Shown piece by piece: positions 138 through 39,865 of a stretch of DNA of 40,007 nt. The notes beneath the pieces are model-generated. The model was not told the origin of the DNA. It searched no databases and saw only the letters and a program-made list of their open reading frames with translations. Numbering within the stretch: the first letter of the stretch is position 1; the number at the start of each line of letters is the position of its first letter. A program made the translations under genes and the position numbers. Origin of the DNA: an uncultured Candidatus Saccharibacteria bacterium. Its GTDB lineage: Bacteria > Patescibacteriota > Minisyncoccia > Minisyncoccales > Minisyncoccaceae. Location: NCBI GenBank assembly GCA_964581805.1, contig CAZOPO010000002.1, positions 1 to 40,007 of the forward strand, read 5' to 3'.

Positions 138-238
138 TCGACAATCATATTTACATTTAAGATAATAAATAAAAACATATGAATAAAAAAAGAATTTACA
201 TTATCTCAAGCACTTTTATACAAAGAATATTCGCCTGA
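138..238 (+). pseudogene. Remnant of the Cys-rich surface-protein family: promoter plus the first ~38 nt of the ORF, then unrelated sequence and a stop after 19 codons
   Basis: TCGACA(138-143)-17 nt-GATAAT(161-166) aligns with the TTGACA-17-GATAAT/AATAAT promoters at 23075 and 39021. ATGAATAAAAAAAGAATTTACATTATCTCAAGCACTTT (179-216) matches the 5' end of the 23240 copy at about 36/38 positions. The ORF MNKKRIYIISSTFIQRIFA* ends at 238. Confidence 0.6.
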
Positions 239-3448: not shown

Positions 3449-4243
3449 ATGAATAAAGAAAAACTTATCATAATATCAATTTTTATAATTATTTCTTTTA
3501 CGTTATTTTTATTAGGATATTCTATTAAATTTTTAACAATTTTTGCCGAAGAAAATTCTCCTAACCCAGGACATACTATCTCGGAAATAGAAAACGGTGA
3601 TCTTTTAGCAACTAAAGACTATGTTGATGAAAAATTTAGAAATATGTCGAGAAATTTTACTGAAGGAGTTGCTTTGAAAACAACTGGAACTGTTCCTGTT
3701 TGTGATATAACGAATTTAGGATTGATGTGGTATTTAGAGGGATCATCAGGAGAACAAGATTTAGTTATTATGTGTCAAAAAATGCAAAATGGTGATTATC
3801 GATACAGAGATTTAATTACTGGTAATGTTGCTAATTGGTGGGGATCTGGTTTGTCAGATTACGGAAAACATAATCAGGCAGACTGTGTTGCTGCAGGAGG
3901 AATAGTGGTTAGTGGAGATAATGAAGAAAAGCAATGTAAATTTACCCGTTCAACTTGTCCTTCTGGATGGGATTTTTATTCTCCTCATTATACTGCTCAA
4001 AATGATTGTACGGCGACTATTACAGGAGGACAAGGAACCTCTGCTTCTTGTTCTGCTTTAGGACATACTTTTTCTAAATTAGGGACTTCAGCCACAGTAG
4101 AAGTTTGTTATTCTCCTATGGGATCAAATCCAAAAATAGCTAAATGGTGTTGTGGCGTTGAATGTCATAGTAATTTTGATTATTGCTATTCTTCTCATAG
4201 TTATAGTTGTTCAGGTTTAATAACAGAAATTGGTTGTTATTAG
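3449..4243 (+). CDS. Secreted or membrane-anchored Cys-rich protein, family member 1 (14 Cys)
   Basis: N-terminal hydrophobic helix ending ..IFA, then NPGHTISEI and DLLATKDYVDEKF. Core DCVAAGG...QCKF...CPSGW. C-terminus ITEIGCY*. It is a paralog of 23240..24064 and 39078..39758. Confidence 0.8.
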   Translation: MNKEKLIIISIFIIISFTLFLLGYSIKFLTIFAEENSPNPGHTISEIENGDLLATKDYVDEKFRNMSRNFTEGVALKTTGTVPVCDITNLGLMWYLEGSSGEQDLVIMCQKMQNGDYRYRDLITGNVANWWGSGLSDYGKHNQADCVAAGGIVVSGDNEEKQCKFTRSTCPSGWDFYSPHYTAQNDCTATITGGQGTSASCSALGHTFSKLGTSATVEVCYSPMGSNPKIAKWCCGVECHSNFDYCYSSHSYSCSGLITEIGCY

Positions 4244-4256
4244 TCATTAATAGTTT

Positions 4257-4284
4257 ACAAAAAAAGAGCTTCTAGCTCTTTTTT
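4257..4284. terminator. Bidirectional intrinsic terminator between family member 1 and ruvC
   Basis: AAAAGAGC-TTCTA-GCTCTTTT hairpin with an A-tract upstream and a T-tract downstream. A near-identical element occurs at 23049..23072. Confidence 0.7.
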
Positions 4285-4350
4285 GGTATTATCTGTTTAA
4301 TTATTATGTTTCAGTAATAAGAATAGGTTGTTCTATCTCTTTGCTATTAT

Positions 4351-4827
4351 TTATCTAAACTTGCAATTATCAGCACAGCAGATTGCTAAAGCTAGAGCGT
4401 CAGCGGCATCATCAGGCTTAGGTATTTTTTCTAGCCTTAAAATGTTTTTAACCATTTCTTGAACTTGCTTCTTTTTAGCTTTGCCATAACCAGTTACGGC
4501 AACTTTTGCTTGAAGGGGAGTGAACTCAAGAAAGGGAATGTTGTGCTTAGAAACAGTAAGAATTATTACTCCTCTTGCTTGGCTAACAGGCATGACAGTT
4601 TTTAAATTCTTAAAGAAAAAAAGACTCTCAATGGCGACAATCTCTGGTTGATGCTTTTTAATTATATAATCAAGATCAAAATTAATTTGTTTTAATCTTT
4701 CTCCAGGACCTTCTGAAGGAAGTGTTTCTATCGTTCCATATTCAATGCAGTCAAACTTATTCTTTTCATAGTTTATTACTCCAAAACCAGTTGTTGCTGT
4801 TCCTGGATCTATGCCTAAGATAATCAT
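4351..4827 (-). CDS. ruvC: Holliday junction resolvase RuvC
   Basis: MIILGIDPGTATTGFGVI N-terminus and C-terminal DAADALALA, at typical RuvC length. It overlaps the yebC stop by 4 nt. Confidence 0.9.
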   Translation of the reverse strand: MIILGIDPGTATTGFGVINYEKNKFDCIEYGTIETLPSEGPGERLKQINFDLDYIIKKHQPEIVAIESLFFFKNLKTVMPVSQARGVIILTVSKHNIPFLEFTPLQAKVAVTGYGKAKKKQVQEMVKNILRLEKIPKPDDAADALALAICCADNCKFR

Positions 4828-5534
4828 AGATTGTTGTATATATTGGAAACATCATCATGTTCTTCAATAGCTTCAAAGAATTTCTGACATTTTTCTATAG
4901 TTTCATCATCAAGAGAGATGTTTTCTTTAGGAACCCATTCTAGTTCCGAAAAATCAATTTTAAAGTTTTTGCTTTCTAGTTCTTTTTTAACTTTTTCTAA
5001 ATCTTCTATTTTAGTATAGACGATAAGGTTGTCTTCTTCGTAGGAAAGATCTTCAGCCCCTGCTTCAATAACACTCAATTCTGCTTCTTCTTTAGAGGTG
5101 ATTTCTTTAATCCCTATAACTCCTTTCTTTTCAAACATCCATTTAATAGCTCCTTCGTTAACAATTTTACCTCCCTTTTGAGAAACTAAAAGTTTAATTT
5201 CATTTAAAGATCTGTTTTTGTTATCAGTGATTCCTTCAATAATAACGGCAACGTTTGCTGGACCGTAGGCTTCCATTAAAAATTCTTCATAGGAAAAACC
5301 TTCCAGTTCTCCAGAACCTTTTTTAATTGCCTTTTCAATACTATCTCCAGGCATATTCAATTCTCTAGCTTTTTCAACGACTGATCTCAATTTAGGATTA
5401 AAAGACAAATCAGAGCCCCCTTCTTTAGCGGCAATAGAAATCTCTTTAGAGAATTTAGAAAATAGCTTACTCTTTTTAGCGTCTTCAGCTCCTTTCTTTA
5501 ATTTAATATTGTGAAAATGACTGTGTCCACTCAT
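4824..5534 (-). CDS. yebC: YebC/PmpR-family transcriptional regulator
   Basis: MSGHSHFHNIKLKKGAEDAKKSKLFSK... is the canonical YebC N-terminus. The track extension to 5582 is rejected because a TTGAAA-17-TATTAT promoter sits inside it. Confidence 0.85.
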   Translation of the reverse strand: MSGHSHFHNIKLKKGAEDAKKSKLFSKFSKEISIAAKEGGSDLSFNPKLRSVVEKARELNMPGDSIEKAIKKGSGELEGFSYEEFLMEAYGPANVAVIIEGITDNKNRSLNEIKLLVSQKGGKIVNEGAIKWMFEKKGVIGIKEITSKEEAELSVIEAGAEDLSYEEDNLIVYTKIEDLEKVKKELESKNFKIDFSELEWVPKENISLDDETIEKCQKFFEAIEEHDDVSNIYNNL

Positions 5535-5540
5535 ATCTTG

Positions 5541-5569
5541 ATAATATCCTAAAAAAAACAAAATTTCAA
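5541..5569 (-). promoter_or_regulatory. Candidate sigma70-type promoter of yebC-ruvC (leaderless arrangement)
   Basis: On the minus strand: TTGAAA (5569-5564), a 17 nt spacer, TATTAT (5546-5541), then 6 nt to the yebC ATG at 5534. Confidence 0.55.
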
Positions 5570-5580
5570 CTCTATATGAC

Positions 5581-5605
5581 AAAATTGGATTTGTGGTCCA
5601 ATTTT
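5581..5605 (-). terminator. Hairpin terminator after the orphan ORF
   Basis: AAAATTGGA-TTTGTGG-TCCAATTTT is a perfect 9-bp stem abutting the stop of 5605..6033. A U-run follows on the minus strand. Confidence 0.55.
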
Positions 5606-6033
5606 TATTTTCCGTAATACGATGCTCGAGGCGATACGCGGAAGTGAGTACTATTAGTTATTTCAATACGAAATCCTATATCAATAGAACCGTCTCCTGT
5701 ATGCTTGAGGCATTCTTTGTGATCGAGCTTGAAGGGATCGATCTGATAAGCTTTCTTGAACCATTTTTTAATTTCATCAAGATTAATCTTGAGAAAGCGA
5801 TCATTCAGGGGGAACTCTCCCTCTTTGTAGTTTGGTCTTCGTGAATTATTATGGATAATATCTATAGAAACATAGATACTGCTCCATTCGACAGGTTCAG
5901 AATGCTTTTCTTCTTCGATTTTAATGGTGTATACATCATCTTTAGAAGTGCAATTTCTGGGGGCGGCGTTCTCAATCAAAGACTCAATCTTTTCCATAAG
6001 TTCGAAACAAAGAACTTCTTTTAGTACTTTCAT
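5605..6033 (-). CDS. Hypothetical protein (orphan, no motif recognised) downstream of ruvB
   Basis: 142-aa ORF with ATG start in the same orientation as ruvB, with its own terminator. Local GC is about 38% against about 28% in the flanking genes (hand count of 60-nt lines). Confidence 0.5.
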   Translation of the reverse strand: MKVLKEVLCFELMEKIESLIENAAPRNCTSKDDVYTIKIEEEKHSEPVEWSSIYVSIDIIHNNSRRPNYKEGEFPLNDRFLKINLDEIKKWFKKAYQIDPFKLDHKECLKHTGDGSIDIGFRIEITNSTHFRVSPRASYYGK

Positions 6034-6062
6034 TTTAAGGGCTCCGAAAATACTATAACATA

Positions 6063-7061
6063 TTAATTGATTGGGGGCAAATTCAAATGTTCGTAAGCTA
6101 ATTTAGTAGCAATTCTTCCTTTAGAGGTTCTTTTTATTAATCCTAGCTGAATTAAATATGGTTCGTATATCTCTAAGATAGTATTTTTTTCTTCAGAAGT
6201 TGCCGAAGATAATGATTGTATTCCTACGGGACCACCTTCAAATTTATTAATAATAGCCTCAAGTATTTTAATGTCTCCTGAGTCTAAGCCTAATTCATCA
6301 ATTTCTAAGAAAGATAAGCCTTCTTTAGCAATTTTTTCCGTAATTAGATTTTTATCTTCCATCTGAGCAAAGTCTCTAACTCTTTTTAAAAGTTTATTAG
6401 CAATTCTAGGAGTAAAACGAGATCTTTTAGAAAGCTCTTTTACTGCTTTTTCATCAATTTCTATATTTAATATTTTAGCCGATCGTCTAATGATTTCTTC
6501 GATCTCTTTATTTTCATAGAATTTTAATTGGAAAATAGCACCGAATCTACTACGAAGAGGGGAAGATAATAAGTCTAATCTTGTTGTTGCTCCGATTAAA
6601 GTAAAATGAGGAAGTTTCATTTCTAAAGTTTTTGCCATTGGTCCTTTACCTAAAATTAAACTTAATTTAAAGTCCTCCATAGCTGAATACAAATATTCTT
6701 CAATGAAACGATTTAATCGATGGCATTCGTCAATAAAAAGAAAGTCTCCTTCGTTTAAACTAGTTAAAAGAGCCACCAAGTCTCCTGGTTTTTCAATAAT
6801 AGGAGCCGAAGTAATACGAATATTAGCATTAGCTTCTTTGGCAACTAAATGGGCTAGAGTTGTTTTTCCTAATCCAGAGCCACCATAAAAGAGAAGATGG
6901 TCAGGACTTTCGATTCTCTTTTTAGCCGCACCAATAATAACCTTTAAATTCTTTTTTATTCTTTCTTGTCCAATATAATCAGACCATTTTTGTGGTCTTA
7001 AAGTGAAATCGGGCGTTTCTTCAATATTATGATCTTGGTTTGTAAAGCTCTTGACAGACAT
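6063..7061 (-). CDS. ruvB: Holliday junction branch-migration helicase RuvB
   Basis: Walker A GGSGLGKTTLA, Walker B FIDECHRL and sensor motifs, at typical RuvB length with the usual C-terminal winged helix. Confidence 0.92.
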   Translation of the reverse strand: MSVKSFTNQDHNIEETPDFTLRPQKWSDYIGQERIKKNLKVIIGAAKKRIESPDHLLFYGGSGLGKTTLAHLVAKEANANIRITSAPIIEKPGDLVALLTSLNEGDFLFIDECHRLNRFIEEYLYSAMEDFKLSLILGKGPMAKTLEMKLPHFTLIGATTRLDLLSSPLRSRFGAIFQLKFYENKEIEEIIRRSAKILNIEIDEKAVKELSKRSRFTPRIANKLLKRVRDFAQMEDKNLITEKIAKEGLSFLEIDELGLDSGDIKILEAIINKFEGGPVGIQSLSSATSEEKNTILEIYEPYLIQLGLIKRTSKGRIATKLAYEHLNLPPIN

Positions 7062-7253: not shown

Positions 7254-8549
7254 TTATCCTACAATTCTTTTTACTTCTTCAATGGTTGTTATGCCATTTA
7301 AAAATTTAATTAAACCATCTTGTTTCATAGTAGTCATTCCTTTTTTGATTGCTAATCTTTGAATAGCTGAAGAAGAAGGGGAAGTTAGAATAAAATCTTC
7401 TAATTCTTCATCAATAATCATTGCTTCAAAAATTCCTACTCTTCCTTTGTATCCTGTAAAATTACAATGTTCGCATCCTTTAATTTCAGAAACTTCTGTT
7501 TTCTCGTTGATTAAAGGTATTTCAATTTCCGAAGGCAATCCTTCCAGCTCTTCTTTGACGATTGAAAGTTCTTCAGGAGTAATTAATCTTTTAGTAGAAC
7601 ACTTAGGGCAAACTTTTCTTATTAATCTTTGAGCAATAGCTACATTAATAGCGGGAGCAATGTTTGAGGGGCTTTCTCCTAGAGCTTGGAATCTAGATAT
7701 TGTTCCTGAGGCTTCATTAGCATGAAGGGTGCTTAAGACTAGATGTCCAGTTAAGGCTGCCTGAAGAGAAATAGAGGCTGTTTCTAAGTCTCTTATTTCT
7801 CCTACAAGAATAGCATCAGGGTCTTGTCTGACAATTGATTTTAATCCAGCAGCAAAGGTATATCCTTTTTTAGGATTAACTTGTGTTTGAGAAATTCCGT
7901 CTAAATGATATTCAATAGGATCTTCAATGGTAATAACTTTTATTTCTGAGTTTTTAATCTTTTTTAAAAAAGCATAAAGAGTGGTTGTTTTTCCTGAGCC
8001 GGTAGGACCAGTAACAACAATCATTCCATTTGGTTTTTCTGTCTCTTTTGTAAAAATTTCATAAATATCTTTTCTTAAACCTAAATCTTCTAGACTAATT
8101 AAGTTTTTAGGATTAAGAACTCTCATAACAATAGTTTCCCCATATTCAGTAGGTAAGGTAGAGACTCTCACTTCTATCTCTTCTAAGGAATCAAAAATAA
8201 TAGAGAACCTTCCATCTTGAGGTTTGTCTTCAATATTTAATTTTAATCCTGATAAAAGTTTAATACGAGAAATAATTCTTTGATTTTTAGCAACGTCAAA
8301 AGAAAATATTTCTTGAAGTATTCCATCAATTCTTGATCTAAGGATTGAGCCACTTTCAATCGCTTCTAAATGTAAGTCAGAAGCGCCAAGAACAATTGCT
8401 CCCGACATAATATTTTTTAAAAGCAAAGAAATATCTTTATTTAAAGAAGCTTCTATCTGAGATTTAAAACTAGGAACTCCTTTAATATTATTAGTAAATT
8501 CCTCTTGTAATTCTTTTTCTATTTCGATTTTTCCTTTGATTGCTTCCAT
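7254..8549 (-). CDS. GspE/PilB-family type II/IV secretion (type IV pilus assembly) ATPase, short N-terminus
   Basis: Walker A GPTGSGKTTT, Asp box/Walker B ILVGEIRD, His box LSTLHAN, and a tetracysteine motif CPKC...CEHC. Confidence 0.88.
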   Translation of the reverse strand: MEAIKGKIEIEKELQEEFTNNIKGVPSFKSQIEASLNKDISLLLKNIMSGAIVLGASDLHLEAIESGSILRSRIDGILQEIFSFDVAKNQRIISRIKLLSGLKLNIEDKPQDGRFSIIFDSLEEIEVRVSTLPTEYGETIVMRVLNPKNLISLEDLGLRKDIYEIFTKETEKPNGMIVVTGPTGSGKTTTLYAFLKKIKNSEIKVITIEDPIEYHLDGISQTQVNPKKGYTFAAGLKSIVRQDPDAILVGEIRDLETASISLQAALTGHLVLSTLHANEASGTISRFQALGESPSNIAPAINVAIAQRLIRKVCPKCSTKRLITPEELSIVKEELEGLPSEIEIPLINEKTEVSEIKGCEHCNFTGYKGRVGIFEAMIIDEELEDFILTSPSSSAIQRLAIKKGMTTMKQDGLIKFLNGITTIEEVKRIVG

Positions 8550-8551
8550 TT

Positions 8552-9604
8552 TTAATTTAAAAATAATAATAATTTTTCTTTAGCTTTGTCCAAGTTATTT
8601 TCATCAATTAAGAATATTCCACCTTTTTCTTTATATGTTCCATCAAAACAGGAAGTCATTTTTTCTATCAAATGTTTTTTATCTGAATAAATTAGCCCTT
8701 TGATCTTAGGATCTGACTCCCATAAGATAAAAAAAGAAGAAAGATTAAGAAAGTTTTTAAGTTTATCAGTAATAGTTCCTAAATCTTTTGATGTGGTTTT
8801 GCTTTTTTTAAAATCATTACTAGAAATTGTAGAGATGTAGATATCGTTTTTGCAGATTAAATTTTTTAAAACTATTTCTAGTAATTTACTTATTCCTCCT
8901 TCTTTAGAAAAGACATTCAAATCTCCTCCGTTTTTTAAAAGCCACTTTATAGTCTTTATCTTTTTATTATTATCCGCTTTTTTGTTAGAAAAAGATAGTC
9001 CATAGAGAAGAAAGCTATTGGCTTGCTTATTTCTATATTGTTCTAATTCTTTTAAAATGCAAGCAATGCTTTGAGATATTCCTTGATTTTCTTTGATAAT
9101 ATTAATTTCTCCGTAATTTTGATTATTTAAATTATTATCAATATTTATAATAGTAGAAGCATAAAGTTGATCAGCCGATTCTTTACAAAGAATTTCAATA
9201 TCTTGAAAATTTTCTATTCCTAAAGTGAAAAGAATATCATAATTGTTTTGATTTTCTAGGTATTTATCTTCAGAGATTATTTTATAAGAGAATTTTTCAT
9301 CTCCTACATTTTTATCTTTAGGGGTTAAGTAAAGAGTAATTCCTTTATCTTTTTTTTCATAATAAACTTCAGAAACTTCACCTTCAAAAGATATTTGGAA
9401 TTTTTTTTGATTTTTTGTTTTAATAAAGCTTTCAATTTTAGGAGAAATATCACAAGTAGGGAAAAAGACATTTTTATTATTACTTTTTAAAGCAAAAAAA
9501 AGAGCTAAAGCAGCTCCTATTGCATCATCATTTGCATTGTCTTTGGTTAGAATGCCAATATTATTAGCATTTTCTAAGATGTTTTTAATATTTATATTTT
9601 CCAT
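8552..9604 (-). CDS. DHH/DHHA1-family (NrnA-like) protein with degenerate catalytic motifs
   Basis: Motif I-like NANDDAIGAALAL. The DHH position reads IINIDNNLNNQNYG (DHH replaced by DNN). The DHHA1 GGGH position reads only KGG. Confidence 0.45.
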   Translation of the reverse strand: MENINIKNILENANNIGILTKDNANDDAIGAALALFFALKSNNKNVFFPTCDISPKIESFIKTKNQKKFQISFEGEVSEVYYEKKDKGITLYLTPKDKNVGDEKFSYKIISEDKYLENQNNYDILFTLGIENFQDIEILCKESADQLYASTIINIDNNLNNQNYGEINIIKENQGISQSIACILKELEQYRNKQANSFLLYGLSFSNKKADNNKKIKTIKWLLKNGGDLNVFSKEGGISKLLEIVLKNLICKNDIYISTISSNDFKKSKTTSKDLGTITDKLKNFLNLSSFFILWESDPKIKGLIYSDKKHLIEKMTSCFDGTYKEKGGIFLIDENNLDKAKEKLLLFLN

Positions 9605-22808: not shown

Positions 22809-23062
22809 TGAAAGTAAAAATTTTAACACCGGAAAAAGTAATATTTGAAGGGGAAGCAGAGGAAATTAATATCCCAACTACATCGGGACATATTTCTGTT
22901 TTAAACAGTCATACACCTTTAGTCTCCGTTATTTCTCCTGGCGAGATAGTATTAAAAACAAAAGAAGGTAAAAGAATTTTTACTAATCAAAATGGAGTTG
23001 TTCAGACGATAAACAGTCAAACAAGTCTTCTTCTTACAGTTTGCAAAGAAAAGAGCCTCTAG
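22808..23062 (+). CDS. atpC: F0F1 ATP synthase subunit epsilon, beta-sandwich domain only (84 aa)
   Basis: Operon position and an N-terminal epsilon pattern (KILTPEKVIFEGEAEEINIPTTSGHISVL). No C-terminal helical hairpin is present. Confidence 0.75.
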
Positions 23063-23072
23063 CTCTTTTTTT
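23049..23072 (+). terminator. Intrinsic terminator of the atp operon
   Basis: AAAAGAGC-CTCTA-GCTCTTTT followed by a T-run; it contains the atpC stop codon. Near-identical to the hairpin at 4257..4284. Confidence 0.7.
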
Positions 23073-23074
23073 GT

Positions 23075-23103
23075 TTGACATTTCTTCTTTTATTTAAGAT
23101 AAT
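23075..23103 (+). promoter_or_regulatory. Family-associated promoter (copy 2)
   Basis: TTGACA (23075-23080), a 17 nt spacer, GATAAT (23098-23103). The about 30-nt block is nearly identical to 39021..39049. Confidence 0.6.
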
Positions 23104-23110
23104 ACAATTA

Positions 23111-23161
23111 ATGAAAACAGAAACAAAAAATCTTCTCTCTCTCTCTCTCTCTAATATAATA
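23111..23161 (+). promoter_or_regulatory. Candidate leaderless leader mini-ORF (MKTETKNLLSLSLSLI*) containing the (CT)9 tract
   Basis: ATG lies 7 nt after the -10 box. The ORF runs through the dinucleotide repeat and stops at TAA 23159-23161. Confidence 0.25.
23135..23152. repeat. (CT)9 dinucleotide microsatellite
   Basis: Eighteen nt of perfect CT repeat, the only such tract noticed in the window, upstream of family member 2. Confidence 0.95.
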
Positions 23162-23188
23162 TCTTTAGAAGATTTTAGTTTGAAAAAT

Positions 23189-23211
23189 AAGGAAGCTTTG
23201 GCTTCTTTTTT
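23189..23211 (+). terminator. Terminator/attenuator-like hairpin between the copy-2 promoter and the copy-2 ATG
   Basis: AAGGAAGC-TTTG-GCTTCTTT followed by TTT, located 29 nt upstream of ATG 23240. Confidence 0.5.
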
Positions 23212-23239
23212 GTTGTAATAAAATAATAAGTAAAAATAT

Positions 23240-24064
23240 ATGAATAAAAAAAGATTCTACATTATCTCAAGCACTTTGCTTCTAATCGGACTCTTTGCCG
23301 GAGTAGTTCAATACGTTGGCACGTTCGACGCCCTTTACGCTGCTGCTGTTAATCCAGGACACTCATGGAGTCAAATGGAATGTACAGATACTTTTTGTAT
23401 AGACACAAATAATAAGAGAATAGGGATAGGAACAATTTTACCATTAGAGGCTTTAGAAATTAATGGAAATATTAAACTAGGAGGAGAAAATCCTACTTAT
23501 ACAATTTCTAATATTAAAGATCCAACTAATGCTTCTGATCTTGCTACTAAAAACTATATTGATCGTGAAATTGCAAAAGTAGGAGCAATGGTTTCGGGCA
23601 CTTTACCTTTAATAAATAGTGCGCATACTCAGAAAGATTGTGTTGATGCAGGAGGAGTTCCCGTCGATGGATCAACACAATTAAAACAATGTAAATTCGC
23701 TGCTTCAGCTTGTCCAACAGGATGGACAGCAAATGAAAATTGGACAACTACAGTGAGTAGTTTGGTTTATATTCAATCTCAATGTATTAGTTACGATGGT
23801 GATGATAATTGTATCGCATACGGCCCAATGGACCGTTATACTTGTTCAACTCCTGAACATTCTTTTAGTAATAAAGCTGCTGAATGGGCAAGATCCGATG
23901 GAGACATTACTCTTGTTTCGCCTTGTTATGCTTTTACCCATGGTAAATGTTATGATTCAGAAATTGGTTATGTTGGAACATTTGGTTTTATTCCTTCCGA
24001 ACCGAAATATTGTTCAAGGTCTGCTACTGGCTATGCAAAAATAGTGGAGATTGGTTGTTATTAA
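23240..24064 (+). CDS. Secreted or membrane-anchored Cys-rich protein, family member 2 (12 Cys) with tail-fibre-like motifs
   Basis: N-terminal hydrophobic helix ..LYA, then NPGHSWSQMEC. Also RIGIGTILPLEALEINGNIKL and DLATKNYIDREI. Core DCVDAGG...QCKF...CPTGW. C-terminus IVEIGCY*. Confidence 0.8.
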   Translation: MNKKRFYIISSTLLLIGLFAGVVQYVGTFDALYAAAVNPGHSWSQMECTDTFCIDTNNKRIGIGTILPLEALEINGNIKLGGENPTYTISNIKDPTNASDLATKNYIDREIAKVGAMVSGTLPLINSAHTQKDCVDAGGVPVDGSTQLKQCKFAASACPTGWTANENWTTTVSSLVYIQSQCISYDGDDNCIAYGPMDRYTCSTPEHSFSNKAAEWARSDGDITLVSPCYAFTHGKCYDSEIGYVGTFGFIPSEPKYCSRSATGYAKIVEIGCY

Positions 24065-24067
24065 AAT

Positions 24068-24096
24068 TAGACAATTTAGAATTTTTCTAGTAAAAT
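24068..24096 (+). promoter_or_regulatory. Candidate promoter of the NIF3-like gene (leaderless arrangement)
   Basis: TAGACA (24068-24073), a 17 nt spacer, TAAAAT (24091-24096), then 6 nt to ATG 24103. Confidence 0.45.
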
Positions 24097-24102
24097 ACTT
24101 TT

Positions 24103-30054: not shown

Positions 30055-30516
30055 ATGCCAAAAATATACTACTTAACAAAGAATGGTTTAAATAAGATAA
30101 AAAGAGAATATGAAGATCTAAAAGAAATTTATAGAAAAGAGATTTTTGAAGAAGCACCTGCTTTATTAGAGGGTGACGCTTTAAATCCTGATTATTCCTT
30201 TTTTCAAGAAAATATTGAAGAACTTGAAAAAAGAATTGAAGAGTTGAGTTTTATTTTAAAAAACTATAAAATAATTAAGAAGCCTAAAGACCAAGAAGTG
30301 GTTAATTTAGGAGCTAAGGTCGTTTTAAAGAATGATTCTGACAAAAAAGAAGAATACCAGATAGTAGGAACCCTTGAGGCGGACCCCTTTTTAGGTAAAA
30401 TTAGTAATGAATCTCCTCTAGGAATGACTTTTATAGGTAGGAAAATAGGAGAAAGTATTCCTTTTAATGACTCTATGAGTTATAAAATAATGAAAATTAA
30501 GTATGAAGAAGTATAA
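30055..30516 (+). CDS. greA: Transcription elongation factor GreA family
   Basis: N-terminal coiled coil (LTKNGLNKIKREYEDLKE) and a C-terminal ISNESPLGMTFIGRKIGES motif. Confidence 0.8.
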   Translation: MPKIYYLTKNGLNKIKREYEDLKEIYRKEIFEEAPALLEGDALNPDYSFFQENIEELEKRIEELSFILKNYKIIKKPKDQEVVNLGAKVVLKNDSDKKEEYQIVGTLEADPFLGKISNESPLGMTFIGRKIGESIPFNDSMSYKIMKIKYEEV

Positions 30517-31249
30517 AATAATTATATTTTCTATTCTAGGAATTATTGTTATTTCTTCTTTTTGGTTTAGTTTTTTCTTTCTTAATAAAAATATAAATAT
30601 TTTTGAAAAAGATCTTTTTGAAGCAGGAGAATCTAGCGATGTAGTTATTGTTTTTAATTCGGGAGGATGGGGAACGGTTTCTTTAGAAAAAGCTAAAGAC
30701 TTTAATCCTATTATAAATGAAATTAAAAGAATATTAGAAGATAATAATTATAAAGTTTCTATTGTTGAATATCATCGAACAGAAGAGAATTTAATTGCCA
30801 AATTAGGATCTTTAAAGGAAATAATTTTTAACTTTTCTCAAAGTTCTAATTTTTTAGCAGAAAAAATAGAATCTTTTATTTCTAATAATCCTGAAAGAAA
30901 AATTATTATGGCAGGATTGAGCAATGGTGCTTCTTTTGCTAATTCTGTTATGAGTAAAATAGAGAAAAATATGGATAATGTTTTTTCTATTGAATTAGGA
31001 GCTCCTTTTGCAAATTATAGAGAAACAAATAAAAATATTCTTGAATTAAACAATGAAACAGATTTCTTAGCTAATGGAGACATTAAAGAATTATCTTTTT
31101 CAGTTATAAAAGCGCCTTTTGTTTGGTTGTATGATAATATAAGAGGAGAAAGTATCTCTTTTTTTGAAGCAATGAGTATCAAGGGTCATAATTATGATTG
31201 GCAAGAGGTGGGCCAAGAAATATCTTCTTTTATTAAGGAAAAAATTTAA
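30503..31249 (+). CDS. Membrane-anchored alpha/beta-hydrolase-like protein (tentative)
   Basis: N-terminal TM helix, VVIVFNSGGWG, a nucleophile elbow IIMAGLSNGASF (GxSxG), and a late His (KGHNYDW). Confidence 0.4.
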   Translation: MKKYKIIIFSILGIIVISSFWFSFFFLNKNINIFEKDLFEAGESSDVVIVFNSGGWGTVSLEKAKDFNPIINEIKRILEDNNYKVSIVEYHRTEENLIAKLGSLKEIIFNFSQSSNFLAEKIESFISNNPERKIIMAGLSNGASFANSVMSKIEKNMDNVFSIELGAPFANYRETNKNILELNNETDFLANGDIKELSFSVIKAPFVWLYDNIRGESISFFEAMSIKGHNYDWQEVGQEISSFIKEKI

Positions 31250-36049: not shown

Positions 36050-36565
36050 TTATTTTTTTAAAATAGTCACTGATAGACCTTTTGGTTCTTTTTTAATTTC
36101 TTTTTCTACTTTTATTTCTAATTTGCTTCCTAGTATTTCAATAAATTTCTTAATTTTTTGGACTCCTACTTCTGATAATTGTTTTTCTCTTCCCTTTAAT
36201 CGTAATTCAACATTAATCTTATCACCTTTATTTAAAAACTTTTCAGCAGCAGATACTCTCGTATTAATATCATTGTCAGAAATGTTAAAGGATAATCTAA
36301 TACTTTTTGTTTCTCCGTGTCTACTTCCAGCAATATTCTTCTTTTCTTTCTTTTGAAGGGAATAAAGATGCTTACCGTAATTTCCAATTTTACATACCGG
36401 GGGATTAGCCTTATCAGTAACCATTATTAAGTCAAGTTCTTTTTCTTTGGCTATGTCTAATGCTTCTGATAGTTTAAAGACTCCTAATTGTTGTCCTTCT
36501 TCTCCGACTAATCTTACACTTTCCGCTTTTATTTGATTGTTGTATTGTGGTTTATTCAATTTAAT
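36050..36565 (-). CDS. infC: Translation initiation factor IF-3 (probable AUU start)
   Basis: IKAESVRLVGEEGQQLGV...PPVCKIGNYGK is the IF-3 pattern. The track start at 36598 (TTG) lies inside the tmRNA T-arm. ATT at 36565-36563 gives a normal-length N-terminus, and AUU starts are classical for infC. TTG at 36559 is an alternative start. Confidence 0.8.
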   Translation of the reverse strand: MKLNKPQYNNQIKAESVRLVGEEGQQLGVFKLSEALDIAKEKELDLIMVTDKANPPVCKIGNYGKHLYSLQKKEKKNIAGSRHGETKSIRLSFNISDNDINTRVSAAEKFLNKGDKINVELRLKGREKQLSEVGVQKIKKFIEILGSKLEIKVEKEIKKEPKGLSVTILKK

Positions 36566-36567
36566 TG

Positions 36568-36922
36568 TGGAGGTGGCGAGTAATGAGCCCGCGTCCAAAA
36601 ATTATTCCATAATATATCTACAAGTTTATTCCAATTTGTTTTTACAAGCTTTAAGACTATAAATTGGAAAAAATGTCTTAAACTTGAATTCAGTTTTTTT
36701 AAGCAAATATCCTCTGAATTAATGAATATTTGCCGTTCTCGCGATGTTTGTGCCCTTTACTACCCAGCGAGAATCGGTAGGAGGACATGCACTAAGCGTA
36801 TGCTAATGCAGGTTCTTCAAATAAGTTGTTTACACTTAAATTTTTTCTCCCAGTTTTACGAGGTTTGAGATGGCTCGACTTGCATACTATTTTCAAATCC
36901 TTGTCAAAGCGAATTCACCCCC
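36568..36922 (-). ncRNA. ssrA: tmRNA (SsrA), 355 nt, CCA not encoded
   Basis: The 5' end reads GGGGGUGAAUUCGCUUUGACAAGGAU. The 3' end reads GGACGCGGGCUCAUUACUCGCCACCUCCA. The acceptor stem is GGGGGUG/CACCUCC with a G3-U pair. The candidate tag frame GUA AAC AAC UUA UUU GAA GAA CCU GCA UUA GCA UAC GCU UAG (36833..36792) encodes (A)VNNLFEEPALAYA*. Confidence 0.9.
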
Positions 36923-37376
36923 TTGTGTTTATCTCGCTTTTTATTTTTCTTTCGATATCTCTTTTTTTGATGGATTCTCTTTTGTCAAACTTCTTCTTTC
37001 CTTTGGCTAAGCCAAATTCCAGCTTTATTTTGTATGTCCTAGTATAAACTGAAAGTGGTACTAAAGTCAAGCCTTTTTCTTTGTTTTTTCCTGTTAAATA
37101 GTCAATTTCTTTCCTATTTAAAAGTAATTTTCTTGGTCTTTGGGGGTTGTATGATTTTTCGGCATTGGCCATTTGATAAGGGGGAATATTAGCTCCTACC
37201 CAAAAAGCTTCAAAAGAACCATTTTTGTTAGGCTTTATTTCAACATATGTTCCTGATAAGCTGATTCCTCTAGTTCTTAAAGATTTTACTTCTTGGCCAG
37301 TCAAAACTAAGCCAGCTTGGAATTTTTCCAATATTTCGTAGTCAAAATAGGCTTTTTTGTTTTTGATATTGTCCAT
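36915..37376 (-). CDS. smpB: SsrA-binding protein SmpB
   Basis: KNKKAYFDYEILEKFQAGLVLTGQEVKS, a basic C-terminal tail, and adjacency to tmRNA. Confidence 0.92.
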   Translation of the reverse strand: MDNIKNKKAYFDYEILEKFQAGLVLTGQEVKSLRTRGISLSGTYVEIKPNKNGSFEAFWVGANIPPYQMANAEKSYNPQRPRKLLLNRKEIDYLTGKNKEKGLTLVPLSVYTRTYKIKLEFGLAKGKKKFDKRESIKKRDIERKIKSEINTRG

Positions 37377-39017: not shown

Positions 39018-39020
39018 TGT

Positions 39021-39049
39021 TTGACATTTCTTCTTGTATTTAAAATAAT
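39021..39049 (+). promoter_or_regulatory. Family-associated promoter (copy 3)
   Basis: TTGACA (39021-39026), a 17 nt spacer, AATAAT (39044-39049). GTTTGACATTTCTTCTTgTATTTAAaATAAT differs from the copy-2 promoter block at 2 positions. Confidence 0.55.
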
Positions 39050-39077
39050 TAAAATATATAAATAATTAAAATTAAAA

Positions 39078-39758
39078 ATGAATAAAAAAAGATTCTACAT
39101 TATTTCAAGTACCTTGCTTCTAATCGGACTATTCGCGGGAGTAGTTCAATATATTGGAGTAATTAATACTATCTATGCTGCCATTAATAATCCAGGACAC
39201 TCATGGAGTCAAATGGAATGTTCTGAGGATCTTTGTATCGATGCTACGAATCATAAAGTAATAATTAAAAACTTACAATTGAATGGCATGCTTTATGATA
39301 CGACAGGATATTCTGCTTCAGATTCTGCTTCTTTGCGCTTAACTGGAGAAGGTGTAAGATGGGACGAACCATTAACTTGGACCGGTAGTACGCATGGATT
39401 AATAGATTGTTCTAATATAGGTGGAACAGTGTTTAATACTGGTTCTGGCACAATATGTAGGATTAGCCAAGCAACTGTGCCTACGGGCTGGACACAAGCA
39501 GCAAACTGGCAAAGATATTCAATAGCTTCATGGGGTGGTGACGCTTGTGGAAGACATGTAAGCACGGCTCCTACAACTTGGAGTAACACATTAGCAATAA
39601 ATTACGGAGCAGGCTCTGTTCAGTGTACAAGTAGTTGTGGAACTTGCGCTGGTTTTGTAGGTCATTGGTGGGCGTATAATAGTTCATCGGGGCCTGTTTA
39701 TACTTTGACCACAACATCAAATCCTACTTCATATCGAGTAGAAGTAGGTGTCTATTAA
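39078..39758 (+). CDS. Secreted or membrane-anchored Cys-rich protein, family member 3 (8 Cys)
   Basis: The N-terminal 48 aa are nearly identical to member 2 (MNKKRFYIISSTLLLIGLFAGVVQY...NPGHSWSQMEC). Core DCSNIGG...ICRI...VPTGW. C-terminus RVEVGVY*. Confidence 0.8.
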   Translation: MNKKRFYIISSTLLLIGLFAGVVQYIGVINTIYAAINNPGHSWSQMECSEDLCIDATNHKVIIKNLQLNGMLYDTTGYSASDSASLRLTGEGVRWDEPLTWTGSTHGLIDCSNIGGTVFNTGSGTICRISQATVPTGWTQAANWQRYSIASWGGDACGRHVSTAPTTWSNTLAINYGAGSVQCTSSCGTCAGFVGHWWAYNSSSGPVYTLTTTSNPTSYRVEVGVY

Positions 39759-39791
39759 TTTGGATATTCTCTTAATTTTTTATTTCAAAAT

Positions 39792-39817
39792 AAGACCTAC
39801 TTTAAAAGTAGGTCTTT
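39792..39817 (+). terminator. Palindromic hairpin after family member 3
   Basis: AAGACCTACT-TTTAAA-AGTAGGTCTT is a perfect 10-bp stem followed by a short T-run. Confidence 0.5.
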
Positions 39818-39865
39818 AGTTAATAATTTATTGCCTTTAAGGTTAAAATCTGCTATTTTTAAGGT

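Follow-up and report, generated by a model that had tools for sequence, protein, structure and literature searches.

The 40,007-nucleotide stretch analysed here (the window; positions 1 to 40,007 of contig CAZOPO010000002.1, assembly GCA_964581805.1, from an uncultured Candidatus Saccharibacteria bacterium) carries three genes and one remnant of a dispersed family of predicted exported, fibre-like proteins. The gene under study, copy 2, lies at 23240–24064 on the plus strand, and a promoter, a short upstream reading frame with a simple-sequence repeat and a terminator-like hairpin precede it. The three open reading frames (ORFs) had been described in a first-pass annotation made from the sequence alone; they were found where that annotation had placed them and translate as it described. 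The genes preceding copies 1, 2 and 3 were confirmed as tyrS, atpC and argS, respectively. The family members and the parts of copy 2 are listed below.

3449–4243, plus strand: copy 1, 264 amino acids (aa), type B (Cys-rich, ending in ...TEIGCY), with the most diverged leader; type B profile match at E=2.3e-25
23240–24064, plus strand: copy 2, the gene under study, 274 aa, type B
23240–23383, plus strand: leader of copy 2, aa 1–48
23384–23599, plus strand: fibre-like stalk of copy 2, aa 49 to about 120
23600–24061, plus strand: C-terminal domain of copy 2, aa about 121–274, with a hypervariable stretch at approximately aa 160–260
39078–39758, plus strand: copy 3, 226 aa, type A (...WQRY...RVEVGVY), C-terminal domain at aa 93–226

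All three proteins share one architecture: a single hydrophobic helix at the N-terminus precedes an NPGH motif, a short stalk comes next, and the C-terminal domain is Cys-rich and ends in EIGxY. The motifs reported earlier were all recovered, namely NPGH(S/T) after the hydrophobic segment, the core H..DC..GG...C(K/R)(F/I)....(C/V)P(S/T)GW, the terminal (T/V)E(I/V)G(C/V)Y, DLLATKDYVD (copy 1), DLATKNYID (copy 2) and KRIGIGTILPLEALEINGNI (also copy 2). The even numbers of Cys residues after the helix (14, 12 and 8 in copies 1, 2 and 3) were also correct, with every one of them beyond residue 40. The claim of a dispersed multigene family held in pairwise BLASTP comparisons (copy 1 versus 2, E=6e-13; 1 versus 3, E=2e-6; 2 versus 3, E=7e-36) and in the alignment of the type B with the type A C-terminal domain profile (hhalign probability 98.6%, E=1.2e-15, 112 columns). 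Hidden Markov models (HMMs) of the leader and of both C-terminal domain types, run against the six reading frames of the window, matched exactly three members.

The raised GC content noted earlier was moderate overall (0.327, 0.365 and 0.396 in copies 1, 2 and 3, against 0.291 ± 0.032 in 36 neighbouring genes), and the value of 0.50 was reached in the highest 120-nt window, which lies in copy 3. It is codon position 2 that is enriched (0.45–0.54), corresponding to a composition rich in Gly, Ser, Thr, Ala, Cys, Pro and Trp, and the GC content at codon position 3 (GC3) of the three copies is host-like (0.15–0.25). The GC excess therefore reflects amino-acid composition, and a foreign origin, as far as it would be argued from GC, is ruled out.

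In each of the three copies the best 19-aa Kyte–Doolittle window scores 2.0–2.7 and falls at residues 6–29, behind a basic n-region (MNKKR, or MNKEK in copy 1), and no later window exceeds 1.0. This bears out the single N-terminal hydrophobic helix and basic N-terminus of the first-pass annotation, and one such basic-flanked segment with no later transmembrane segment points to export, with the bulk of the protein probably outside the cell. The low-confidence AlphaFold2 (AF2) model of full-length copy 2 shows residues 3–37 as one helix. Candidate (-3,-1) cleavage sites occur at residues 33–36, and the leader would either remain as an N-terminal anchor or be cut near (I/L)(F/Y)A. No lipobox is present, there being no Cys in the first 40 residues of any of the three proteins, and neither do they carry the prepilin motif of type IV pilins or pseudopilins, as Pfam N_methyl was not matched and MNKKRFYIISSTLL lacks the Gly(-1)/Glu(+5) pattern.

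Among relatives the 48-aa leader is nearly invariant and can be written as MNKKR(F/I)YIISSTLLLIGLFAGVVQY.G.F..LYAA..NPGHSWSQMEC. Over leader codons 1–26, compared in 66 pairs among 12 genes from the window and related loci, the proportion of synonymous differences (pS) was 0.35 and that of non-synonymous differences (pN) was 0.04; it is therefore selection on the peptide that preserves identical leaders, and recent gene conversion is ruled out as their cause. This constraint exceeds that of an ordinary signal peptide and suggests a retained anchor or a specific partner. A transmembrane helix followed directly by APNPGHSWS(E/Q)(I/M) and an unrelated Cys-rich body was also seen in the metagenome-assembled genome (MAG) of a DPANN archaeon (Woesearchaeota; RFII01000010.1, L006 3977–4477) and in an unclassified bacterium (L005 3833–4402). 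These leader-like matches are weak, with bodies unlike those of the family, and the NPGHSWS N-terminal motif may be a general module of ultrasmall prokaryotes.

The stalk of copy 2, from residue 49 to about residue 120, is made of one GIGT-type unit plus NASDLATKNYIDREI. The association with tail fibres proposed in the first-pass annotation stands at the level of motifs and does not extend beyond them. Residues 73–113 matched PHROG tail-fibre, tail and virion-structural families weakly (E 1.4e-3 to 7e-3), and annotated Klebsiella phage tail fibre genes were matched weakly by tblastn (E ~8e-3). Giant proteins of 1–7 thousand aa repeat profile positions 49–99 (the CIDTxNxRVGIGTxxPxxxLEINGN unit) 10–50 times, and one of these (P0104) ends in Peptidase_S74. 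Both fibre repeat motifs, the GIGT-type unit and ATKxYVD, are present in the family. The three window proteins gave no Pfam match to Peptidase_S74, and they do not lie in a phage structural gene cluster, the family-matched genes of the window being cellular and none of them phage.

Two types of C-terminal (tip) domain were distinguished. Type A, found in copy 3, follows the pattern ..LTWxGSTHTxxDCxxIGGTV.DTG..GTICR....VPSGWTQAANWQRY....NRVEIGIY, and the Cys-rich type B of copies 1 and 2 follows ..LVN..HT...C..AGGTVV.....QCRFN.S.CPSGWT.Y.NW.TT....TQIGCY. In both types the N-terminal half is conserved and the C-terminal half varies in sequence and length. The window proteins matched no Pfam, NCBIfam or PADLOC family and no PDB sequence, in agreement with the earlier failure to recognise a named family in this domain. 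The AF2 model of the copy 3 domain, built with 34 homologue sequences, has a predicted local distance difference test (pLDDT) score of 95.6 and a predicted template modelling (pTM) score of 0.84, and depicts a compact alpha+beta domain with one helix and seven strands. Foldseek searches with this model retrieved no structural neighbour, either in the PDB (best E 2.6, TM-score <0.2, no C-type-lectin (CLec) entry) or in BFVD (best E 0.3, TM-score <0.22). Two candidate relationships of the tip, suggested by CPxGW and the terminal beta-strand, were rejected. A C-type-lectin fold was ruled out by the PDB comparison, and a relationship to FISUMP (PF09603, TIGR02145) received an hhalign probability of 1.9%, with PSGW as the only part aligned and no FISUMP HMM match.

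A pattern scan of IMG/VR found the type A domain once, in the 79-kb viral contig IMGVR_UViG_3300035037_000204 (L007). There, an ORF of 177 aa (4869–5402) ends in the type A tip, and the next ORF has the first 42 residues in common with it (74% identity) and a different C-terminus (pair region 4869–6950). The pair is followed by a DUF1353 gene matching the PHROG family 'tail assembly chaperone' and has genes for a tail sheath and an HNH endonuclease on its upstream side; the tip-bearing gene is also present on a 118-kb contig. Adjacent genes with a common N-terminal adaptor and alternative C-termini, next to a chaperone, are the usual layout of phage receptor-binding proteins. It is mainly because the L007 pair has this layout that we regard the tip domain as a binding module, and the tip probably binds a ligand on another cell. 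Neither tip type was found in GenBank phages, where copy 3 had no match and copy 2 had weak stalk matches only.

The family is numerous, and a literature search found no description of it. An initial database search returned 30 relatives. When 1.84 billion cluster representatives were searched exhaustively with the profile, 12,594 matched at E<=1e-3 and 1,767 at E<=1e-10, the latter including repeat-only proteins; a scan of GTDB species representatives gave 4 loci. The profile matches fall into full-length proteins built like the window copies, many of which have the leader variant ...YQY...F..E...A....KPANGHSWSEMEC, proteins that bear the family C-terminal domain behind other N-termini, and the giant proteins with the repeated stalk unit. 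All named members are annotated 'hypothetical protein' and come from Pacebacteria/Paceibacterota. The ATP synthase beta subunit of the window likewise belongs to a cluster (90%) in which all members with a name are Candidatus Paceibacterota/Pacebacteria MAGs, and the organism is assigned to Candidatus Paceibacterota.

The same leader also occurs in front of other tips. It is fused to Fib_succ_major (PF09603, FISUMP) in P0010-12, 16, 18, 20 and 26 (TIGR02145 E=1.7e-26) and to an FGE/lectin-like end in P0028 and L004; in L010 and L011 a type B gene adjoins a FISUMP-type gene. Several further arrangements were observed among the related loci. On a 220-kb contig (L015 8325–12516), a tandem array of three type B paralogues precedes a 471-aa protein that weakly matches a right-handed beta-helix, with ribosomal protein genes on one side of the region and an arginine biosynthesis operon on the other. 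In a related Paceibacterota locus (L016 15220–18847), a 386-aa prepilin N_methyl protein precedes a FISUMP protein of 386 aa and an unknown protein of 392 aa, and pilin-like carriers may be another means of displaying FISUMP tips. In the Paceibacterota contig JBBABL010000009.1 (L003 4001–4689), a homologue flanked by rlmN-like and pyrH genes is split over two frames, with the leader fragment at 4001–4192 and the C-terminal domain at 4189–4689, and represents either a frameshifted pseudogene or an assembly error.

Comparison of the chromosomal slots between strains (window 39018–39830 versus L008, L009, L013 and L014; window 23040–24100 versus L019 and L020) revealed differing occupants within conserved flanks. 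In the argS slot, four assemblies with the same argS 3′ end and downstream flank carry the type A copy 3 (window), a type A allele (L014), another type A gene (L008) and a FISUMP-type gene with its own terminator (L013). In the atpC slot, the window has the upstream ORF (uORF) module described below followed by type B copy 2, and in L020 and L019 the orthologue of this type B gene is preceded instead by a type A gene. Only some of the strains possess the uORF module, between flanks that are conserved. Along the gene, DNA identity between copy 2 and its L019 counterpart is 83–97% at nt 240–480, falls to 45–65% at nt 480–780 (aa ~160–260) and returns to 88–95% at the 3′ end. The variability assumed in the first-pass annotation was thus evident both in the hypervariable half of the C-terminal domain and in the cassettes that differ between strains. 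The diversity of the family is one of tip exchange behind a constant leader (types A and B, FISUMP, lectin-like) and of whole-cassette replacement at fixed slots.

A further trace of the family, with the promoter of copy 3, was located in the window.

138–238, plus strand: remnant of a family member, with a promoter-like site (TCGACA-17-GATAAT) at 138–166, then a truncated leader ORF of 19 codons at 179–238 (MNKKRIYIISSTFIQRIFA*)
39021–39049, plus strand: promoter P1 of copy 3 (TTGACA-17-AATAAT, 11/12 matches), beginning 4 nt past the argS stop

The remnant is real, as the earlier annotation had it, with the correction that its ORF spans 179–238 and that 138 is the start of the promoter-like site. 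In the window repeat search, 158–216 was 92% identical to 23219–23277, which covers the sequence before copy 2 and its start; a 3′ gene fragment, called dnaN in the earlier annotation, occupies 1–137, upstream of the remnant. The truncated ORF is probably a deletion scar of the cassette-turnover process. The three genes had also been called monocistronic. Copies 2 and 3 have near-consensus promoters of their own (11/12 matches). Copy 1 starts 13 nt past tyrS, with no promoter-like site on its own strand, and is therefore probably co-transcribed with tyrS and not monocistronic. A terminator-like hairpin was seen downstream of copy 1 (4260–4284), and a hairpin lies downstream of copy 3 (~39792–39816).

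Between atpC and copy 2 we identified an element which consists of the following parts.

23075–23239, plus strand: whole element in the window
23075–23103, plus strand: promoter P1 (TTGACA-17-GATAAT, 11/12 matches), conserved before family members at other loci and in other strains
23111–23218, plus strand: uORF of 35 codons, MKTETKNLL(SL)nSNIISLEDFSLKNKEALASFLL*
23134–23152, plus strand: (TC)9.5 simple-sequence repeat within the uORF
23189–23208, plus strand: terminator-like hairpin, AAGGAAGC-TTTG-GCTTCTTT with a T-run after it, located past the repeat of the uORF and ahead of copy 2

The ATG of the uORF (23111) is 7 nt past the -10 hexamer, so the mRNA is probably leaderless, and the stop codon (23216–23218) is 21 nt before the ATG of copy 2. 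In the long frame the uORF crosses the hairpin, and in the short frames its stop codon comes where the tract ends, ~33 nt upstream of the hairpin. An independent contig (L001) has flanks identical to those of the window and three TC units more. A metagenome scan with the 5′ flank yielded six further loci; counted together with L008 and L004, there are ten instances (the window, L001, the diverged L004 at 1526–1700, and L008–L014), with tract lengths of 5, 6, 6, 6, 8, 9, 9, 11, 12 and 13 units; the uORF is in the long frame in seven of them and in a short frame in three. The genes behind the element all have the family leader, with type A, type B, FISUMP or lectin-like tips. In L009 and L013 the hairpin loop is changed from TTTG to TTCG and the stem is kept. 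L004, with 45% GC and a leader ~50% identical, keeps the geometry in a diverged sequence (promoter, 7 nt, uORF ATG, (TC)13, hairpin), and its hairpin loop contains the uORF stop. Pure dinucleotide repeats of at least 6 units were found nowhere else in the window or in 21 related loci. With respect to RNA structure, Rfam returned no family at the element, the sole match in the window being tmRNA, and the fold of the whole element was not more stable than that of shuffled sequences (z = -0.84). A perfect 10-bp inverted repeat (23126–23176; AAAATCTTCT ... AGAAGATTTT), partly broken in L014, flanks the (TC)n tract and places it in the loop of a predicted hairpin.

The arrangement has a counterpart in the pil1 operon of Streptococcus gallolyticus, in which the number of GCAGA repeats sets the length of a leader peptide, and ribosomes translating the long peptide destabilise a premature terminator and turn expression on (Danne et al. 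2014, PMC3894217). The element before copy 2 has, similarly, a simple-sequence repeat within a short leader ORF behind P1, a hairpin that ribosomes would cover in the long frame only, a repeat number that varies between strains and shifts the frame, and a putative adhesin gene downstream. It differs from pil1 in that the repeat is the dinucleotide (TC)n, the uORF is apparently leaderless, and the element serves a multigene family at several loci in a bacterium of the Candidate Phyla Radiation (CPR). By analogy, the long frame would be the ON state and the short frames OFF or low. In the library searched, no paper was found that ties phase variation to Patescibacteria in substance. The first-pass annotation mentioned neither this element, nor the fusion of the leader to other tips, nor the phage homologue.

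Taken together, copy 2 appears to belong to a family of cell-surface proteins in Paceibacterota that are exported, modular and fibre-like. Its 48-aa leader (basic N-terminus, hydrophobic helix, NPGHSWSQMEC) would carry the protein across the membrane; the short stalk, with one xVDTxNxRIGIGTxxPxxxLEINGN unit and ATKNYID, would be built of motifs common to phage and giant-protein fibres; and the disulfide-rich C-terminal tip of 135–155 aa would bind a ligand on another cell. Transcription would start from a strong promoter and probably be gated by (TC)n slippage in the leaderless uORF, such that in the long frame ribosomes pass over the terminator hairpin and allow read-through (ON), and the gain or loss of a single unit makes the uORF end ~33 nt short of the hairpin, with termination of transcription as the result (OFF or low). 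We favour, with moderate confidence, the reading that the family consists of exported, probably membrane-anchored mini-fibres with a ligand-binding, disulfide-rich tip, diversified by exchange of tips and slot occupants, some members of which are stochastically switched on and off; we infer their surface position, disulfide bonding, oligomeric state and role in binding, as well as which frame of the switch is ON. The host-attachment or receptor-binding system put forward in the earlier annotation is, overall, partly supported. That these proteins form the host-recognition apparatus of episymbiotic Paceibacterota, with anchored mini-fibres bearing tips that are shared with phages and whose fold is unmatched in PDB and BFVD, shuffled between slots and individually switched by (TC)n tracts, is possible and is proposed here tentatively.

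Several observations weigh against the mini-fibre reading. The likeness to tail fibres is confined to short motifs (E 1e-3 to 1e-2), and the model of full-length copy 2 is poor (pLDDT 52.7). The tip model is that of copy 3 and is extended to copy 2 by profile homology. A single viral contig with the tip domain was found, and type B was not found in IMG/VR by the pattern scan. Copies 1 and 3 have no switch, with copy 3 possessing P1 minus the element and copy 1 neither. The tract lengths differ between assemblies of different loci and strains, where errors in repeat assembly are possible.

Other explanations account for part of the same evidence. The proteins might be secreted soluble effectors (a toxin, bacteriocin or lytic factor) with a cleaved Sec signal and a Cys-rich domain acting on target cells, in keeping with the (-3,-1) cleavage candidates at residues 33–36, the small size (226–274 aa), the Cys-rich and variable sequences, and the many paralogues with interchangeable C-termini. 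However, the 18–20-residue hydrophobic segment and the next helix are under unusually strong purifying selection, beyond the need of a disposable signal peptide, no immunity-like gene is adjacent and no toxin or enzyme family was matched. Because the stalk is fibre-like and the homologue resembles phage receptor-binding proteins, binding is indicated rather than catalysis, and we consider the effector explanation unlikely. Somewhat less probable again is that the proteins are surface decoys or shields against phages, or remodel the envelope, with variation and switching serving phage evasion. Phase-variable, cassette-swapping surface proteins are classic traits of phage and immune evasion, and the tip is common to a phage protein, but the PADLOC search for defence systems had no match in the window and nothing ties the family specifically to defence loci; this explanation is in any case compatible with surface localisation and differs in the selective agent only. 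The stalk motifs, the tip domain in a phage contig and the truncated remnant at 179–238 could also be taken as signs of prophage debris, the genes being phage tail-fibre genes that are domesticated or in decay and do nothing for the cell. We regard this as very improbable in view of the lack of any phage gene in the 40-kb window (no phage family was matched among the scanned ORFs), the export leader, which is absent from phage fibres, the host-like GC3, the purifying selection on the leader, the conserved dedicated promoters and regulatory element, and the intact orthologues in many strains.

Two explanations concern known protein classes of such bacteria. Assembly by type IV pilus machinery, as pilin-like subunits or pilus tip proteins, would fit the long N-terminal hydrophobic helix (3–37), the pilus ATPase in the window (T2SSE, 7254–8549), the fact that CPR bacteria make pili, and the adjacency of pilin-like and FISUMP genes in L016; with no N_methyl or prepilin motif, and a leader that begins MNKKRFYIISS, there is very little likelihood of it. 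C-type-lectin-fold variable proteins targeted by diversity-generating retroelements (DGRs) are common in CPR, and a hypervariable C-terminus in a CPR surface protein, with sister genes having FGE/CLec-like or FISUMP ends, might be expected of a DGR target. Yet no reverse transcriptase was found among the scanned window ORFs and no template/variable repeat pair in the window, the tip model has no CLec neighbour in the PDB, hhalign gave 1.9% against FISUMP, and the variation between strains consists of indels and Cys changes rather than adenine-specific substitutions, all of which makes DGR targeting extremely improbable.

The mini-fibre reading can be set against known systems. With phage tail fibres and receptor-binding proteins (GIGT repeats, Peptidase_S74) the family shares the stalk motifs xVDTxNxRVGIGTxxPxxxLxVxGN and ATKxYVD, the constant N-terminal part with an exchangeable tip, and the tip itself, which is found on a phage gene; it differs from phage fibres in that the window genes are cellular, lie among housekeeping genes, have an export leader, lack S74 and contain one or two repeat units. 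Like the FISUMP family, it comprises multi-copy exported paralogues with CPxGW, and in related strains the same leader and stalk are fused to FISUMP, a gene of this kind also occurring in the argS slot, but the window proteins have no match to the FISUMP models and the profile–profile comparison is at 1.9%. Mycoplasma Vlp/Vsp and Neisseria Opa are variable surface families with conserved 5′ ends and switching by simple-sequence repeats. The present family resembles them in its many paralogues, conserved leader and 5′ region, divergent bodies and occurrence in probably host-dependent organisms with small genomes; unlike these, the window proteins are neither lipoproteins nor beta-barrels, and the repeat is in a separate uORF rather than in a promoter spacer or coding leader. 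As in the DGR variable proteins of CPR and DPANN, a hypervariable C-terminal region, presumably ligand-binding, is found in predicted surface proteins of ultrasmall prokaryotes, in this case with no retroelement in the window and no CLec fold by Foldseek. The component kinds of system (variable surface families, phage-like adhesins, attenuation by simple-sequence repeats and leader peptides) are already known. New are the domain family, which is unannotated and has no structural neighbour in PDB or BFVD, the combination of a constant leader with swappable tips in CPR, and a (TC)n attenuator-like element in the phylum.

The means by which CPR/Patescibacteria locate partner cells and stay attached to them are a central question of the field, and annotation exists for very few of their surface proteins. 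The family is a concrete and widespread candidate, with a constrained leader, a confident tip model without structural neighbours, replacement at slots and a putative switch whose state is readable from metagenomic reads. If the host-recognition proposal is true, each cell lineage would have a changing repertoire of receptor specificities that sets its partner range, and the switch would give the Candidate Phyla Radiation its first described phase-variation (contingency) system. A design so far demonstrated by experiment for a single pilus operon of Streptococcus would then extend to a distant phylum that is uncultivated. The tip would also provide a new domain family for the annotation of phage receptor-binding proteins.

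Apart from the family, all window ORFs with a family match are of the housekeeping type: PBP1, tyrS, ruvABC, the type II/IV secretion ATPase, tsaE, a two-component pair, fpg, holA, a murein ligase, the atp operon, a NIF3-like gene, greA, polX, thiI, infC, rpmI, rplT, smpB, tmRNA and argS. The position of copies 1–3 next to essential genes, correctly reported earlier for tyrS, atpC and argS, has no discriminating power in this genome, because every other family-matched gene of the window is of this type. The ATPase gene (7254–8549, minus strand; T2SSE, E=4e-117) adjoins a 350-aa ORF without family match (region 7254–9604), and the two may be part of a type IV pilus system. A few window ORFs lack a family match; those at 5605–6033 (minus strand, 142 aa) and 30503–31249 (plus strand, 248 aa) gave no significant Pfam match. 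The tmRNA (Rfam RF00023, 120 bits) was located at 36565–36922 on the minus strand, directly beside smpB (36915–37376, minus strand).

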